Source of the DNA: a virus
Virus record (IMG/VR): IMGVR_UViG_3300025018_000121
Span: 27,094-91,093 of that record
Length of the DNA: 64,000 nucleotides
Direction: 5' to 3' (one strand)
The notes below the pieces were generated by a model. That model saw only the letters and a program-made list of their open reading frames with translations, was not told where the DNA came from and ran no database searches. Each line of letters begins with the position of its first letter. Within the stretch, counting starts at the first letter, position 1. Of this stretch, positions 3,925-56,242 are shown in pieces. The translations under genes were made by a program, and so were the position numbers.

Positions 3925-4238
3925 AAAAACGTACATTCAGACAAACGAATAAGTTTGGTGTCGTTAAAATTCGCAGAATGTCCTATACAAGTAAGTGGTC
4001 AACAACTTCTAAAGACGTTAAGAAAAGAGATGGTAATAGGTGCGCTATTTGCGGTTCTACTGATGGTCTGGAAACCCATCACATCATTCCGCGTTCTAAA
4101 GGCGGAACCGATAGAAAGACTAATTTAATTACACTATGCGAAAGACACCATAACAAAAGACATAGACATAAACAAAGTTCGCCAAAGAGGAAAAAGAATG
4201 AAAAGGTTAAATCAAAACGAACAATCAAAGCTAGATAA
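3921..4238 (+). CDS. HNH endonuclease
   Basis: RDGNRCAICG...HHIIPRSKGG...NLITLCERHH, the Zn-binding HNH signature. Confidence 0.9.
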   Translation: MKKRTFRQTNKFGVVKIRRMSYTSKWSTTSKDVKKRDGNRCAICGSTDGLETHHIIPRSKGGTDRKTNLITLCERHHNKRHRHKQSSPKRKKNEKVKSKRTIKAR

Positions 4239-4770
4239 AATTCTAGCTAAAATTGATTTTGGAACAGAAGAAATTAATTTAGAAGACGTTGCTGAAGTTG
4301 CTACTGTAGCACGAATAAAAATCTCACCTAATAAAGTCTTAAAGCAAGAAGCCTTAACATTTGATATTTCTGACGAAAGTAAAGCGGAACAGGACTTTGA
4401 AGCAACTGCTACAGAAGTAATGATTCGTACTCAGTTAAAATCAACTCACGACAAATTAGAAGAACTGCGCGAAATTGCCAGAGGCTTTTTCTACAGAACT
4501 GAAGCAGAGACTGAAGCAGAAATTGCAGACCATGTTAACATTATTGAAAACATGAAGTTTCCAAATTATTTTAGTGAGTATGTTAAAACAAAATACAGTT
4601 ATGCTTTTTGGCGACGTGACCCCGATATAGCATTTAAATACAGGCTCGCTAAAGAACTGTTAGAAGCCATTAGAAAACGTTCACCTTCTTTTTCTAATGC
4701 TGTTCTTGAAGGTATTGTAGAAATGTCGCCAGAGACTTCCTACATTATGTCATCTTGGATTGATAATTAA
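4198..4770 (+). CDS. Hypothetical protein with MKRLN leader
   Basis: GAGG RBS, 190-aa ORF, CTAATTTAAT motif upstream at 4120. Confidence 0.6.
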   Translation: MKRLNQNEQSKLDKILAKIDFGTEEINLEDVAEVATVARIKISPNKVLKQEALTFDISDESKAEQDFEATATEVMIRTQLKSTHDKLEELREIARGFFYRTEAETEAEIADHVNIIENMKFPNYFSEYVKTKYSYAFWRRDPDIAFKYRLAKELLEAIRKRSPSFSNAVLEGIVEMSPETSYIMSSWIDN

Positions 4771-26600: not shown

Positions 26601-27252
26601 TTCTAATAACTCTTTTGCTCTTGCTGTCGGCCACCGTAGAGAAAAAGAAACTATATTTACTACCCTTATTGAAATCATGCCAGATAAGGGTAAAAATGTT
26701 TTGAACTACAATTCTATCTTTGAAGAAGTAGTAGTCCCTTTAGTAGACTCATTAAATGTTCAATTTATTTGTGCTGACCGTTGGAACTCTTTATTCCTTT
26801 TACATAAATTAGAAGAAGATAAAAAAATAAAGCAAATGCAGTATAGCGTTAAATACGCAGACTTCAATTTATTTAAATCATACTCTGAGGGTAATAGAAT
26901 TCTATTTCCCAAAATGGAAATGCGAGCAGAAAAAGCATTAACTATTCCTAGCACAGAATACATAGAGAAGTTTACGTACAAACCCTGTGCCCATTTATTC
27001 TCTCAGATATTTACTGTTGAAGACAAAGGCCGCACTGTTGATAAAGGTAAAAACAGAACTGACGATTTATTTAGAGCTGTGGTATTAGCCTCTAGGTTCT
27101 TACTTGATGATTCATGGGTAGCTGAGAATCTTAATTTAACCAAAAGAAAAAACAGCAATATGGGAATCGTTGCACTGGCTAATGGTGCAAGCCCTACAGG
27201 CACTTTAGCTACGGCAACAGGTAAAGGAATTATTTCGTCAGGAGGTCATTAA
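23665..27252 (+). CDS. terL: Terminase large subunit containing an intein
   Basis: Walker A GQRSGKS, Walker B AIDE after the intein, ISSP, nuclease LALDAG, ADRWNS, TDDL; upstream of portal. Confidence 0.88.
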   Translation: MKTSDVKFSKRKALAKGKNCLNCASFSKCSKSKKSGSYVCESYKKIKVKGENAFSLEDMFADTNFHVADDYSDFVPIEDEHDFKNMEINVVKMMDEIFESENPYPRDLKIDDRDLPEFKNIYEYFFDPVYGLAKNMQPFSRQLWAGVKLFGDYCPICSDHKFMEDIENCPISMRAIDFPEHVVFMENGKCPKCKGHKLDFVKKGYMNFYRDFAACLGQRSGKSVTFSMFSGYHHHKFLKMGKPAELLTGLPNVTLTATYTATDFKTAMETLWQPFVDIIDESPWFKAYHSMLDHYGKKYGEEIYRFKESFLHYKHTKMFTSAASPNKRTMRGRCLTGDTLVNTSQGTMHFSEFIKEMDYNKTDLQIMSHLGGRTVSHTYKSEETETYKLRTRNGFSVEGTPEHPMLVLNEDLSMDWVTLDKLKVGQWIVSKTNKEKTLYGNAKLSKTDAELLGYFVANGYRNEVSTNDQDVANRLIYLGKKITGVIPTHTKNNSSIRADSYRFIYKNGESNFVRDYLNPLGYDFKNSKDKMIPAIVRMAPREVMHEFLEAYFKCDSGINGGSKNSPSEIEVGSASKKLAKQLHVILFKNYGILGRLTKHTFYDKLNKTTGNFNAKRNHWTITITGYDANLFLQTFKKAKVQKYKDRIKDVPKGFMSDRRSVPYVRKFLWDLYENSRLVDTLGKRLRRLIAENGSVVLNNIKPKCFDRLRSSRDIYEETPEYLIYGDDWDILIPRIKDLNLSKGTALKDFLSFEGHFEQVVEIKKSSKKKTVYDVTVPDGHAFIANCLVSHNTRFEYAIDELGWFDASSESKDKVRISADEIYGALDRSMKTVMSASKRLFLQGYSGTTPGMSFNISSPSAYDDKIMSMCRIHKDSRVVLALHLPTWKYNPKEPKENFRKEYMEDPIKAERDFGANPPMAASPFFENINAIVPNFTDKANFATYEYSLKKVNNTLYKSAKLKLSVRGDIYPSVLALDAGFSNNSFALAVGHRREKETIFTTLIEIMPDKGKNVLNYNSIFEEVVVPLVDSLNVQFICADRWNSLFLLHKLEEDKKIKQMQYSVKYADFNLFKSYSEGNRILFPKMEMRAEKALTIPSTEYIEKFTYKPCAHLFSQIFTVEDKGRTVDKGKNRTDDLFRAVVLASRFLLDDSWVAENLNLTKRKNSNMGIVALANGASPTGTLATATGKGIISSGGH
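24664..26037 (+). mobile_element. Intein (458 aa) with LAGLIDADG-type endonuclease domain
   Basis: MRGR|CLTGDT, GTPEHP block B, LLGYFVANG and FLEAYFKCDS, VYDVTV...SHN|T. Confidence 0.95.
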
Positions 27253-52741: not shown

Positions 52742-53389
52742 TTATACCCTCACGTATTTACGAATCTCAAAGTTTTTAGGTTCGTTTTCTTGGGCCAGCT
52801 CTAAGCAATGATCTAAAGTAAACCCAGAAGGTTGAGTGTACAGAGCTACCTCATAATAATTGTAGTGATGTATTCTCTTAACAAGAGGCGAGAAAAAAGA
52901 AACTTTTTCTTTAACTTCGAGTACATTTTCAACAGGTGCTAAGAACACTTTAAGACTATCAAACTTCATTACAGTTACCCAAACTTCCGAGCACAAATCA
53001 ATGTAGTCTTTGTAAATTGATTCTCCACCAATAAACCAAACTGTATCAAGACTTTCAATGTCGCCTTTACTAGTTAAAAGTGCGATACCAATTAGAAGTC
53101 CCAAGTCCGCTTTAACTTTATCAGAATTTTTAAATCCGTTAGTGAATACAAGATTTTTATGTTCGTTGTCTACATTGTATTTTTCAGGTTGACGGGTTAT
53201 GACTATATTGAATCTATTAGGTAGTGGCTTGCTACCCATAGACTCAAATGTTTTTCTACCCATTACTACGATACAACCCGAAGTTTTTTCTTTAAAGTGT
53301 TTCATATCAGTAGAACACTTCCACGGAATCTGGTTATCTATTCCAATAACGCCTTGTAAGTCACAAGCTACGATCATTTTAAAATTCAT
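52742..53389 (-). CDS. folA: Dihydrofolate reductase
   Basis: IVA...VIG..NQIPW...DMKHFK..T, VMGRKTFES, PLPNR, IGG..IY. Confidence 0.95.
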   Translation of the reverse strand: MNFKMIVACDLQGVIGIDNQIPWKCSTDMKHFKEKTSGCIVVMGRKTFESMGSKPLPNRFNIVITRQPEKYNVDNEHKNLVFTNGFKNSDKVKADLGLLIGIALLTSKGDIESLDTVWFIGGESIYKDYIDLCSEVWVTVMKFDSLKVFLAPVENVLEVKEKVSFFSPLVKRIHHYNYYEVALYTQPSGFTLDHCLELAQENEPKNFEIRKYVRV

Positions 53390-53631
53390 TTCTGTTTCTC
53401 CAATAACCTTCTTGCAAATCCCGGCCTGTTTGCCGTTTCATAAAGGTGACGTGCGATTACAATACCAAAAACTTTATGGCCAATATTAGAAATGTACTTT
53501 CTTTTATTCTTAGACATTCTTGGTCTTCTTGAACTTACTTGAAGACTTGTTACGTACTCATACTCGGCAACCACTATCTTTTCTTTATCGTTTAGTTTCA
53601 GCTCTGGATAATAATCTTTAAGAATTTCCAT
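53386..53631 (-). CDS. Hypothetical protein
   Basis: ORF track, operon packing. Confidence 0.55.
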   Translation of the reverse strand: MEILKDYYPELKLNDKEKIVVAEYEYVTSLQVSSRRPRMSKNKRKYISNIGHKVFGIVIARHLYETANRPGFARRLLEKQK

Positions 53632-53639
53632 GTCTATTT

Positions 53640-54134
53640 TTATCTCCGTCTACGTGACTTAATTCTGTCCTGTGATTGTTTACGTTCTTCTAGTATTCTA
53701 AAACAATATTCTTCATCACTCTCAGTTACTTTTTCAGTAGTCTTTTCGGTATGCTCATAAGTCATACGCAAGAAAGTTTTATTAGTGCTCTGGTCGTAGA
53801 CAATGCTTGTTTTAAATTTATCAGGCAACTTTTCAAAATCCTTTTTGGTATTATCCTTACATATTTCAATTTCCTTTGTTTCCCTTACAACTTTAATTTT
53901 TTCTACACTATTTAATCTAGGCCAGTTTTTAAACTCAACTATGAAATTGTTATCTTTGGGGCCAAGAAGCTTTTCTTTATTAAGTTCGAGTTTCAATTCT
54001 CTAAAAGATTGTGCTTGCATAAAAGTTTCGTGGTTAACAACCCGTTTGTCAAAACTGTAACGCCTTTCTATTTCTTTCAAAATGTTAGTAACCGTTCTAC
54101 TCGCATAAATTACTTTAGTGTCTGAGTTAATCAT
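53640..54134 (-). CDS. Hypothetical protein
   Basis: ORF track, operon packing. Confidence 0.6.
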   Translation of the reverse strand: MINSDTKVIYASRTVTNILKEIERRYSFDKRVVNHETFMQAQSFRELKLELNKEKLLGPKDNNFIVEFKNWPRLNSVEKIKVVRETKEIEICKDNTKKDFEKLPDKFKTSIVYDQSTNKTFLRMTYEHTEKTTEKVTESDEEYCFRILEERKQSQDRIKSRRRR

Positions 54135-54535
54135 TTGCTATTATCCTTTATTTCTTTCCATTGACCTTCAAAAACTAAAGAGCCTTCATTTGTGTACAGA
54201 CTATCAACTTGAAGTATCTTAATGGGAACTGTAGTGTTCCGGTATTGAAAAACTTCCTCAATAAGTTGATCCTCACTAGTAGCAAAGGCCAATGAGTTTC
54301 CGTACCTAATTACATTGAAAAGAAACCTCATTAAACTTTCTAATTTTTCAGCGTTATAGTTTTTGAAGTTATTCTGTACATACTCTTTAACAGCGTTTCG
54401 GTGGCCTTCCGTTAAATTAAACATGCCTAGACTTTCTATAAAATGGATTAGGGAATTCAAGTCACTCCAGTAAGTTTTAGCCATACAAAAACAACTGCGA
54501 GTATTAAGATCACAAAGATAAGAATTACTAGACAT
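54131..54535 (-). CDS. Hypothetical protein
   Basis: GAGG RBS. Confidence 0.6.
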   Translation of the reverse strand: MSSNSYLCDLNTRSCFCMAKTYWSDLNSLIHFIESLGMFNLTEGHRNAVKEYVQNNFKNYNAEKLESLMRFLFNVIRYGNSLAFATSEDQLIEEVFQYRNTTVPIKILQVDSLYTNEGSLVFEGQWKEIKDNSK

Positions 54536-54551
54536 TTTTCTTTCCTCAATT

Positions 54552-54592
54552 TGGCGCGCCCAGCAGGACTCGAACCTGCAACCTACGGCTTA
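54552..54592 (-). pseudogene. 3' half of a split canonical tRNA-Arg gene
   Basis: TAA-GCCGT-AGGTT-GCAGG-TTCGAGT-CCTGC-TGGGCGC-G-CCA; acceptor strand pairs perfectly with 55139-55145. Confidence 0.9.
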
Positions 54593-55015
54593 TCTATTTA
54601 GTTGTATCTTCCTACTGGCAATACCATTACACCTTCTACTACACTTAGGTACTGTCCCTTTCTTTATTTGATTAACATACTTTATAAATTTTTTATTACA
54701 CACAGGACAAATTAACTTGGCCTGTTTTCTCTTAGGTCTTTCTAAAAGCGTCTTGGCTAAATGTTCTTTCTTAGAAAGAACTTGCAAGTTCTTTGACCTG
54801 TCATTGGTTTTGTCTCCGTCTATATGGTCAATCTCATATTTTGACGGTATTATCTTTCCTGTTTTTACTGAGAGTTTGTACCTAGCGTATGATATAGTTG
54901 TTCTATCTTTATTAGAATTGAATAAATCAACTCTTTTTCTTCCATCTTTTTTGCTTTCTCTTAGATACCCAGATTTCCATTTCTCTTTAAATGGACTTTT
55001 TAGTTTTATTTTCAC
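54590..55015 (-). CDS. HNH homing endonuclease with C-terminal Zn finger, inserted in the tRNA-Arg gene
   Basis: EIDHIDGDKTND...NLQVLS..EH; CPVC...CSRRC; GAGG RBS before GTG 55015. Confidence 0.88.
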   Translation of the reverse strand: MKIKLKSPFKEKWKSGYLRESKKDGRKRVDLFNSNKDRTTISYARYKLSVKTGKIIPSKYEIDHIDGDKTNDRSKNLQVLSKKEHLAKTLLERPKRKQAKLICPVCNKKFIKYVNQIKKGTVPKCSRRCNGIASRKIQLNR

Positions 55016-55030
55016 AGGCACCTCTATAAA

Positions 55031-55109
55031 TGGCGGGAGTGGTGGGACTCGAACCCACATTGATCCTATTACGGGACTACAGCTTAGAAGGCTGTTCCGA
55101 TACACCCCC
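55031..55109 (-). tRNA. Non-canonical D-armless tRNA-Arg(UCU)-like gene with long variable arm
   Basis: GGGGGTG/CACTCCC acceptor, TA, TCGGA in place of the D arm, ACAGC-CTTCTAA-GCTGT, 20-nt variable region, GTGGG-TTCGAGT-CCCAC, G-CCA. Confidence 0.8.
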
Positions 55110-55115
55110 TTTTAA

Positions 55116-55145
55116 CGTTGCTCTATCCAATTGAGCTATGGGCGC
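55116..55145 (-). pseudogene. 5' half of the split canonical tRNA-Arg gene
   Basis: GCGCCCA-TA-GCTC-AATTGGATA-GAGC-A-ACG; TGTAAAGTA motif 7 nt upstream. Confidence 0.9.
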
Positions 55146-55168
55146 TTTGATTTACTTTACAGAACTGC

Positions 55169-55543
55169 TTAAAAAGGTATTTCGTCGTCATAAAGTCCGT
55201 TTTCTTCTAAAATCTTTTTTAATTTCTCATTCTTTGATTCCAGTTCGTAAATTCTTAGGTGCAGCTCGTCCCTGTAGTTTTTATTCCCTGTAGGGTCTAG
55301 TATCTTTATCCACATTTCTGTTCTTTCTGAAAACATTTCTTGCATTTCTTTGTCTTGTATAAAAGCTACAACGTGTCTTAGGTCGTAAGCACAACGTAAA
55401 GCATTTTTTGAAAGCAAACGGTATCTTTCAGCCAGTACACTAAAAGGTGTATTGCACAGTTGCCATACGGTTACAAAACGTCTAATGGACATGGAAACCT
55501 CTAGGTCTTTCCATTTTTGAAATGCAGACATGATCCATAGCAA
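55169..55543 (-). CDS. Hypothetical protein ending in DDEIPF
   Basis: ORF track; true start may be further downstream. Confidence 0.55.
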   Translation of the reverse strand: MLWIMSAFQKWKDLEVSMSIRRFVTVWQLCNTPFSVLAERYRLLSKNALRCAYDLRHVVAFIQDKEMQEMFSERTEMWIKILDPTGNKNYRDELHLRIYELESKNEKLKKILEENGLYDDEIPF

Positions 55544-55841
55544 ATATGTGCGCGTAATCGGTTACTTGATAAATCTTGTTCACCGCTGTTACTTTATAAC
55601 CTTCCTTAGTTTTTGTTATTTTTGTAATAGTTAATTTTTCTCCATAGTCCTTATGCTGCCACACGCTACCAACACCAGCATCTAAAACAAGTTTTTCATA
55701 ACTACATTTAATGCACGTAAGACCTTTTACGTTACGTTCGCCAAAGCCACCTGAAACTATTTTATGACATGTGTTACACACAAAGCTATTGTTGAGTTGC
55801 GCATACCATTCTTTAAAAAATTTAGTAAATGAATTTTTCAT
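55482..55841 (-). CDS. Hypothetical Zn-finger protein
   Basis: CNTC...CIKC. Confidence 0.55.
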   Translation of the reverse strand: MKNSFTKFFKEWYAQLNNSFVCNTCHKIVSGGFGERNVKGLTCIKCSYEKLVLDAGVGSVWQHKDYGEKLTITKITKTKEGYKVTAVNKIYQVTDYAHIFAMDHVCISKMERPRGFHVH

Positions 55842-55963
55842 ATTCTTTAATCCTTCTGTTTGAGATTCTACGTCTATGTGCGCTTGAAAAAATAAGCAGA
55901 GCTAAAGCACACCACACAAAGTTTATCGCGTATAAATAACCAACTAAGATGAAACAAAATAAA

Positions 55964-56242
55964 TTAAAGATGTTCATCTATCTGACCTTCCTTGCTGACG
56001 TGACTAAATTTCATTACTTGGCAATTGTTGCAAACTTTATACCAGCTTTGAGTTCCTTCTACACCCTTGCCGTCTTCTTTCATCATCATTCCCTTTTTAC
56101 CACTGACGTATCTAAAATTGTGTCTACCGAAAGTACACTTCAAACCTTTAGTATCAAGATCTTTCATTAGGCTTGCAATCAAAGGAGACATTAGAAGAAA
56201 CATTATTACTGCGTATGCGTAAATGTCATTTAGGTTTTCCAT
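55964..56242 (-). CDS. Small membrane-anchored Zn-binding protein
   Basis: TM helix, C..GRH...CNNC; GGAGG RBS. Confidence 0.55.
   Translation of the reverse strand: MENLNDIYAYAVIMFLLMSPLIASLMKDLDTKGLKCTFGRHNFRYVSGKKGMMMKEDGKGVEGTQSWYKVCNNCQVMKFSHVSKEGQIDEHL

Follow-up and report, generated by a model that had tools for sequence, protein, structure and literature searches.

A probable mobile cassette of a noncanonical tRNA-Arg(UCU) gene and an HNH endonuclease gene within a broken phage tRNA-Arg gene

We describe a nested transfer RNA (tRNA) locus in a 64,000-nucleotide (nt) stretch of viral DNA, hereafter the window, which covers positions 27,094 to 91,093 of IMG/VR record IMGVR_UViG_3300025018_000121. 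The window is part of a 91-kb viral contig from an aquifer metagenome, with a completeness estimate of 37%. At this locus, the two halves of a tRNA-Arg gene enclose a second, oddly shaped tRNA gene with anticodon UCU and a gene for a free-standing homing endonuclease of the HNH_3 family. The most likely explanation in our judgment is that a two-gene mobile cassette, consisting of a noncanonical tRNA-Arg(UCU) followed by the endonuclease gene, broke a phage tRNA-Arg(UCU) gene. The insertion almost certainly disrupted and inactivated this outer, canonical gene in its anticodon arm.

The GC content is 36%, and the genes surrounding the locus lie on the minus strand, as do all elements of the locus itself. 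Read in this direction, the locus opens with the 5' fragment of the outer tRNA-Arg (55116..55145, tRNA positions 1-29), which comprises the acceptor strand, an intact D arm and the first 3 nt of the anticodon stem; 55145-55116 reads GCGCCCA TA GCTC AATTGGATA GAGC A ACG. The junction filler TTAAAA (55110..55115) separates it from the 79-nt inner tRNA(UCU) gene with its encoded CCA (55031..55109), behind which a 15-nt spacer (55016..55030) holds the ribosome-binding site AGAGGTG of the HNH_3 gene. This gene (54590..55015) encodes 141 amino acids, begins with GTG at 55015 and ends with TAA at 54592-54590. The same TAA forms anticodon-loop positions 36-38 of the outer tRNA, whose 3' fragment (54552..54592, positions 36-76 plus CCA) continues with the 3' strand of the anticodon stem, the variable loop, an intact T arm, the acceptor strand, the discriminator G and CCA; 54592-54552 reads TAA GCCGT AGGT TGCAGG TTCGAGT CCTGC TGGGCGC G CCA. 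An initial annotation, made from the letters alone, had proposed this layout with its shared stop codon, and every coordinate and base of it was confirmed by direct reading.

The acceptor strands of the two outer halves, GCGCCCA and TGGGCGC, pair over 7/7 positions, a perfect match that had also been noticed initially. Absent from the outer tRNA are the six bases GCCTTC (positions 30-35, anticodon included), and decoding by it is therefore impossible. When GCCTTC is added to the halves, ARAGORN calls tRNA-Arg(tct) and the fold is a perfect cloverleaf; joined directly, the halves give no tRNA call by ARAGORN at default settings. The earlier statement that simple splicing cannot restore the gene thus holds. 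The filled-in outer tRNA shares 84-96% identity with many intact phage tRNA-Arg genes, and similar tRNAs that bridge both halves in aquifer assemblies are all tRNA-Arg, mostly with anticodon UCU. The 30-nt 5' half itself has no exact match in IMG/VR. The locus also does not resemble an archaeal-type split gene or a gene with a bulge-helix-bulge intron, as the anticodon and half of its stem are missing from both fragments (no search for the bulge-helix-bulge motif was made). Overall, the outer halves are scars of an insertion and no working split tRNA, and nothing present could splice the RNA.

Evidence for mobility comes from relatives of the HNH gene. Homologues of its protein numbered 98 at an expectation value (E) <= 1e-5, and the locus set comprised 140 distinct open reading frames (ORFs) with their flanks. 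One of these loci, L156, lies on an unrelated metagenome contig and carries the unit of the window: a split tRNA-Arg, the inner tRNA and an HNH protein 76% identical to that of the window. The outer 5' half of L156 reads GCGCCCG TA GTTC AACCGGATA GAAC AA and its 3' half ends in ...CGGGCGC GCCA, the inner tRNA equals that of the window except for the discriminator base, and GGAGGT precedes the same GTG start at the same distance as the ribosome-binding site in the window. BLAST similarity between the two extends from 55145 to 54548, that is from base 1 of the outer tRNA to 4 nt beyond its CCA. The immediate flanks of L156 are unrelated to the window, with one weak protein-level match 2.3 kb downstream. 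Homology bounded by the ends of the tRNA is as expected from homing into a conserved tRNA gene, or from repair templated only by the tRNA halves. The cassette probably moves as a unit and is probably directed at tRNA genes. The right junction of L156 (~1500-1520) shows a tandem 6-nt duplication (CCGTAG CCGTAG) that creates the HNH stop, and its left junction is without 8 nt of the window; the filler TTAAAA is no conserved functional element, because L156 does without these 8 nt at the same place.

tRNA genes split by members of the HNH family are recurrent. In about 12 distinct loci the HNH gene is flanked by a 5' tRNA fragment on its upstream side and a 3' fragment on its downstream side, and the acceptor strands of the two are complementary. 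Pairing across the HNH gene was 7/7 in L039, L051, L067, L156, L157, L158, L181, L213, L214 and L219 by a scan and in L199 by eye, a count biased by the scan's demand for at least 6/7 acceptor pairs. A full tRNA sits inside the split tRNA at eight loci. In the window, L156 and L157 (tRNA-Arg), L181 (Ile UAU) and L199 (Met CAU) it precedes the HNH gene, and in L051, L067 (CAU) and L213 (UAU) it follows it; at L039, L158, L214 and L219 the HNH gene stands alone between the fragments. The split-plus-spare layout is therefore also found with tRNA-Met/Ile(CAU) and tRNA-Ile(UAU). Where the outer anticodon loop is intact (L067 and L199, CAU; L213, UAU), the inner anticodon is identical to the outer one in 3/3 cases. 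In most split loci the 5' fragment ends within positions 26-31, and the 3' fragments mostly start at 31-39. L067, L199 and L219 are clean insertions with zero bases lost, and decayed or mismatched outer fragments occur in L160 and L169. At the start of the insert in L181 (~560-620) and L177 (~700-750), directly after the orphan 5' fragment, there is a consensus TTGACA-17-TATAAT promoter, followed by tRNA-Ile(UAU) and the HNH gene. Some cassettes thus bring their own promoter, whereas that of the window does not: no promoter-like site was found nearby on its strand. Use of the original promoter of the outer gene, as initially proposed, is conjectural. Extra tRNA halves with 7/7 complementary acceptors, ~250-300 nt apart, lie upstream of the HNH gene in L178 (~374 to 56 nt before it) and L186 (~297 to 44 nt before it), and may belong to a second insert, different from the first, in an adjacent tRNA gene.

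Intact and disrupted alleles were found among cultured phages. The E. coli Kuraviruses ECBP2 and SU10 carry an intact canonical tRNA-Arg(UCU). In CHD5UKE1, of the same species as SU10, and in 1-6af, the first ~20 nt of the tRNA-Arg are followed by an HNH gene of the family and then by a different tRNA-Arg(UCU), which in 1-6af has the noncanonical shape. Together with L156 and the other split loci, these alleles support the initial proposal that the insertion destroys a canonical tRNA-Arg gene. For the Kuravirus homologues, ECBP2 and SU10 represent the empty allele; at the exact locus of the window none was seen. There, megablast with 19 kb around the locus returned no related phage record, the flanking proteins (54134-54535 and 55172-55543) had no relatives in IMG/VR, and the aquifer assemblies contained no cassette-free allele of the window phage (...GAGCAACGGCCTTCTAAGCCGTAGG... 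between the same flanking genes). Joints skipping 523-536 nt were considered as such an allele and rejected, being tRNA-Arg genes of other organisms with 3-6 mismatches per 41 nt.

The inner tRNA has acceptor, anticodon and T stems, a 7-nt anticodon loop (CTTCTAA), a canonical T loop and an encoded CCA. It matches the Rfam tRNA model with 42.1 bits (cut-off 29, E = 4.8e-7), the D-arm positions being deleted, and our family model R1 with 90.6 bits; ARAGORN gives no call for it. Position 9 is separated from the anticodon arm by just 5 nt (TCGGA); there is no canonical D hairpin. A 3-bp D-stem-like helix (CGG/CCG) surrounds the anticodon arm and is followed by a D-loop-like stretch, TAATAGGATCAAT; the single strand TAAnnGGAnnnAT after the enclosing helix looks like a D loop (G18, G19, A20). 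BLAST relatives of the inner tRNA came from phages of Stenotrophomonas, Agrobacterium and Alishewanella and showed compensatory changes in both the acceptor and the anticodon stem. A sequence pattern for the shape recovered 60 IMG/VR contigs (~54 genuine, ~6 false), and covariation was analyzed across 45 distinct sequences. In the stems 96% of cells were paired and 14/20 pairs changed on both sides, and none of 500 shuffles reached the observed covariation score. Alignment columns 11-13 pair with columns 37-39, the three bases just past the anticodon arm; pair 11-39, for example, is C-G in 32 sequences, U-A in 13 and unpaired in 0. The enclosing helix of distant members is CCC/GGG in PA11 and L012, CTTC/GAAG in phage 1-6af, CCACC/GGTGG in L157 and TCC/GGA in L160. 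The inner tRNA had been described as D-armless, which is correct in that the canonical D hairpin is missing; it is no plain D-armless tRNA, however, because a D-stem-like helix encloses its anticodon arm. A tRNA-Ser-like reading, with a hairpin in the extra region, was rejected (42% of cells paired).

The anticodon is UCU in all 45 distinct sequences, which also retain C35, U36 and a nearly invariant GGA (possible G18-G19-A20). We take these to be arginine identity elements, by analogy with those of the E. coli arginyl-tRNA synthetase, and charging of the noncanonical tRNA with arginine is predicted on this basis. In large phage tRNA arrays, the noncanonical tRNA occupies the Arg(UCU) slot with no canonical Arg(UCU) called beside it, and an HNH gene of the window's family lies nearby in only 4/58 loci with this shape. 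We therefore read it as the normal tRNA-Arg(UCU) of those phages and no accessory of the nuclease. The expectation that the odd tRNA would travel with HNH homologues thus failed. The broader proposal of a homing element with a replacement tRNA of the same specificity is partly supported by the recurrence, the matching anticodons and the tRNA-bounded homology, but not in so far as it made the odd tRNA private to the cassette. Besides the window (55031-55109, minus strand), the noncanonical tRNA is found at L093-L152, L236 (745-842), L087 (1508-1586), L088 (1502-1577) and L089 (1496-1572). PA11, SOVA965 and L169 also combine it with an HNH gene, and both features are present in the cultured phages 1-6af, CHD5UKE1, PA11, AM24 and SOVA965. 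GenBank records leave the tRNA unannotated in PA11, AM24, Bestia, SOVA965 and Atu_ph04 and label it tRNA-Ser in Slicko01.

In the window phage, AGA is the main arginine codon, accounting for 48% of arginine codons in the long ORFs of the window (25 per 1000 codons). Apart from the inner gene there is no tRNA(UCU) on the 91-kb contig, whose sole other tRNA is Leu(UAA). A spare tRNA is therefore needed. Between the window and L156, the inner tRNA is identical at 78/79 positions and the 3' part of the HNH gene at ~62% (DNA); judging from this comparison, the inner tRNA is under strong constraint. We have good reason to regard it as a working tRNA-Arg.

The HNH protein matches Pfam HNH_3 (PF13392, 1.4e-10) and phrog_14913 (5.7e-50, aligned from residue 1), with a weak match to a C-terminal zinc ribbon. 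Residues H64, N76, H85, C103, C106, C125 and C129, which make up the HNH motif and a Cys4 zinc module, are invariant among 13 relatives, and with its catalytic and zinc-binding residues thus conserved the enzyme looks active. A search of NCBIfam gave nothing useful, and none of the solved structures was sequence-related to the HNH profile, the sole match (E = 0.0019) being a zinc-finger artefact. Across the family, the nuclease gene is closely tied to tRNA genes: 307/310 neighbouring tRNA genes are on the same strand, and tRNAs directly adjoining the HNH gene have anticodon NNU or UAA in 72/82 cases (among them Leu UAA, Met CAU, Arg UCU and Ile UAU), compared with ~54% of other tRNAs in the same loci. 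Among the HNH loci (L007-L086 and L156-L235), the stop codon coincides with T36-A37-A38 of the downstream tRNA or tRNA half in at least 10, as it does in the window, and ARAGORN leaves orphan tRNA fragments unreported at many HNH loci.

Some further features of the family and the window are recorded here. The related Acinetobacter phages AM24 (L236) and Bestia (L237) have different HNH alleles on opposite sides of the same tRNA-Thr gene; the HNH gene of Bestia lacks an annotation, and an odd tRNA-Ile(UAU)-like gene comes after it. Two viral contigs, L014 and L015, have at 4025-4461 a permuted tmRNA-like gene called by ARAGORN, with tag AANDAQFAPQLKLAA, ~1.6 kb downstream of the HNH gene. Within the window, a 215-amino-acid ORF on the minus strand (52742-53389) has a start which, by eye, we take to resemble dihydrofolate reductase (IVACDLQGVIG...IPW...).

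These observations suggest the following scenario. During a mixed infection, the HNH enzyme would nick or cut tRNA genes that have no cassette, in the region of the anticodon stem and loop. Repair of the break would use the genome with the cassette as its template, homology being provided by nothing but the two tRNA halves, and the resulting allele would be immune, since its target site is now split. The inner tRNA, which is without the canonical D-arm sequence adjoining the break point, would keep AGA decoding going. The site of cutting, the escape of the spare from it and the way in which the unit is transcribed are points that we infer. Immunity of the inner tRNA to the HNH enzyme is a tentative proposal, one we would sooner doubt than assert. 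Rather unlikely, in our estimate, is the most far-reaching version, a natural cleave-and-rescue drive that may even have shaped tRNA architecture, nucleases selecting for rearranged D-arm regions that they do not recognise.

Several points count against the homing scenario. The supposed target of the HNH enzyme and the supposed immunity are both deduced from the layout. The inner anticodon arm is nearly identical to the inferred arm of the outer tRNA; against an enzyme that reads nothing but the anticodon arm, the spare would have no immunity. Members of the noncanonical tRNA family mostly occur without an HNH gene beside them, and the shape may thus be unrelated to immunity. The junctions of the window and L156 differ, by an 8-nt indel at the left one and in the HNH C-terminus at the right one, which weighs against homing from a single donor because pure homologous homing would copy the junctions exactly. 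No close relative of the window phage was found, hence no empty allele at the exact locus. Finally, comparison of the window with L156 shows the outer halves to be conserved better than neutral relics should be; either repeated capture of fresh functional tRNA-Arg genes or continued selection on the halves would explain this.

An alternative that dispenses with directed homing is a scar of illegitimate recombination, in which breaks in tRNA arrays, whatever their cause, captured a neighbouring HNH gene and tRNA; the HNH gene would then be an ordinary resident of tRNA clusters and the inner tRNA a bystander. Such an origin would suit the variable break points (at position 20 in Kuraviruses, at 26-31 in other loci, and with a loss of 0-13 target bases), the many loci with an orphan 5' or 3' fragment only, the four split loci without an inner tRNA and the fact that the noncanonical tRNA is usually unlinked to any HNH gene. 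It would not account for the same cassette in the same kind of tRNA in the unrelated contexts of the window and L156, where homology stops at the ends of the tRNA, nor for the match of inner and outer anticodons wherever both can be read, the clustering of about a dozen independent break points at the anticodon arm or the excess of NNU and UAA anticodons beside the HNH gene. We consider this alternative improbable, although of the four weighed here it deserves the most attention. It is less probable still that the outer halves remain functional, their acceptor stem, D arm and T arm coming together around the insert as a tRNA-like scaffold for RNase P or 3'-end processing or for stability of the HNH transcript or, less plausibly, by being joined into a tRNA. 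Between the window and L156 the outer tRNA has undergone structure-neutral changes only, while the 3' part of the HNH gene has diverged as described above. Pair 7-66 changed from A-T to G-C and pair 11-24 from C-G to T-A, the remaining differences being two D-loop bases and one variable-loop base. One of these two compensatory pairs (7-66) spans the insert: the 3' fragment has 39/41 bases in common with L156, and its altered position 66 restores pairing with the altered position 7. The 7/7 acceptor pairing in a dozen split loci points the same way, within the search bias already mentioned. However, decoding is precluded by the loss of the six bases with the anticodon, no ribozyme is present, processing of the inner tRNA would sever the transcript between the halves, and the fragments in L160 and L169 are decayed or mismatched. 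Repeated capture of a functional tRNA-Arg explains the conservation equally well, independent phage tRNA-Arg genes being 84-96% alike.

An intron, spliced from the precursor to restore the tRNA-Arg as group I introns in bacterial anticodon loops are, is very unlikely. Mobile tRNA introns do likewise lie in the anticodon loop and contain an endonuclease ORF, and the clean insertions in L067, L199 and L219, without loss of target bases, would be compatible with splicing. However, models of group I and group II introns had no match in 54000-56000 at E up to 10, in agreement with the initial failure to see an intron core. The 523-nt insert has only ~100 nt of non-coding sequence, 79 of which are the inner tRNA, too little for a ribozyme core; in L039 and L219 ~20 nt non-coding are left. 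Exon bases 30-35 are, moreover, missing in the window. An assembly chimera, a mis-join at a repeated tRNA sequence, would be conceivable for a metagenome contig, where tRNA k-mers are common to many organisms in the sample. It was rejected, and we assign it next to no probability: an independent Logan contig of 10,998 nt from the likely source run spans 53600-56000 with 0 differences, identical fragments from three other aquifer samples cross both junctions (by 12 and 21 nt), and L156 has the same layout. In addition, the longest identical run shared by inner and outer tRNA in the window is 11 nt, and the junctions lie outside the shared sequence. The doubt about the assembly raised at the outset is thereby settled, and insertion of a cassette with a spare tRNA remains the reading we prefer.

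It is established that endonuclease genes reside in phage tRNA clusters and cut tRNA genes. SegB of T4 and F-TflI/II/IV of T5, the latter HNH enzymes, are free-standing homing endonucleases encoded in such clusters (PMC2330249). SegB cuts inside tRNA genes of relatives without SegB and so raises the inheritance of its region to near 100% (PMC2330249; Akulenko et al. 2004 as cited there); its ORF abuts tRNA-Arg, and tRNA processing is thought to clip the mRNA at the stop codon (PMC2330249). The locus described here is similar in that its nuclease gene, too, is found among phage tRNA genes and on their strand. It differs in that SegB is a GIY-YIG enzyme that recognises a T-loop motif and is encoded between intact tRNA genes, whereas the HNH gene sits inside a tRNA gene broken in the anticodon arm and is accompanied by a tRNA with the same anticodon. 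The PA11 homologue of the HNH protein was described by its depositors as similar to T5 TflI; T5 was not among the tblastn matches of the window HNH at E <= 1e-10, and no direct comparison with the T5 F-Tfl proteins was made.

Mobile group I introns in anticodon loops of bacterial tRNA genes offer a second comparison (review PMC3984707). They share with the cassette the insertion into the anticodon loop, the endonuclease ORF inside and homing into alleles without the intron. The window differs in having no ribozyme and in missing exon bases, rescue coming from a second gene copy and not from splicing. A further case is mobE of phage Aeh1, which lies inside the ribonucleotide reductase gene and leaves 'genes in pieces' (J Bacteriol 2007, as cited in PMC2330249). 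There too, a free-standing HNH homing endonuclease splits a gene without intron or intein. Both protein halves reportedly reassemble and stay functional in Aeh1, whereas the tRNA halves of the window cannot work and a replacement gene is carried. The same logic underlies synthetic drives: in ClvR and HomeR, a nuclease destroys a needed resident gene and the element carries a recoded, uncuttable copy. ClvR and HomeR are engineered Cas9 systems in insects; the case presented here is natural and relies on a protein-guided HNH enzyme, and immunity of its rescue copy is only proposed. As for the inner tRNA, D-armless tRNAs of metazoan mitochondria (PMC4394434) likewise have no canonical D hairpin and are presumed functional. 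The noncanonical phage tRNA differs from them in keeping U8-A9, a D-stem-like helix and a GGA D-loop-like strand in a different order, and in its canonical T loop and bacterial-virus origin. In the literature searched, which left subscription journals mostly uncovered, no paper came up that reports an HNH cassette with a spare tRNA splitting a tRNA gene, in keeping with the initial impression that the nested layout was not known, or that reports the noncanonical tRNA-Arg(UCU) shape.

Self-splicing introns and inteins are known to shelter homing endonucleases within important genes. Rescue by a spare gene borne on the element would add a third way, one that follows the logic of engineered cleave-and-rescue drives. 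The cassette would explain the orphan tRNA fragments in phage tRNA clusters and suggests one route by which tRNA genes are exchanged between unrelated phages. The noncanonical tRNA represents a fold worth solving. Phage tRNA inventories are under-counted, because ARAGORN misses this common tRNA-Arg(UCU) shape and GenBank records leave it unannotated or call it tRNA-Ser. If the proposed link between nuclease and tRNA architecture is true, selection by HNH enzymes would explain why a rearranged tRNA-Arg(UCU) is so widespread and is repeatedly found as the 'rescue' copy beside nucleases.

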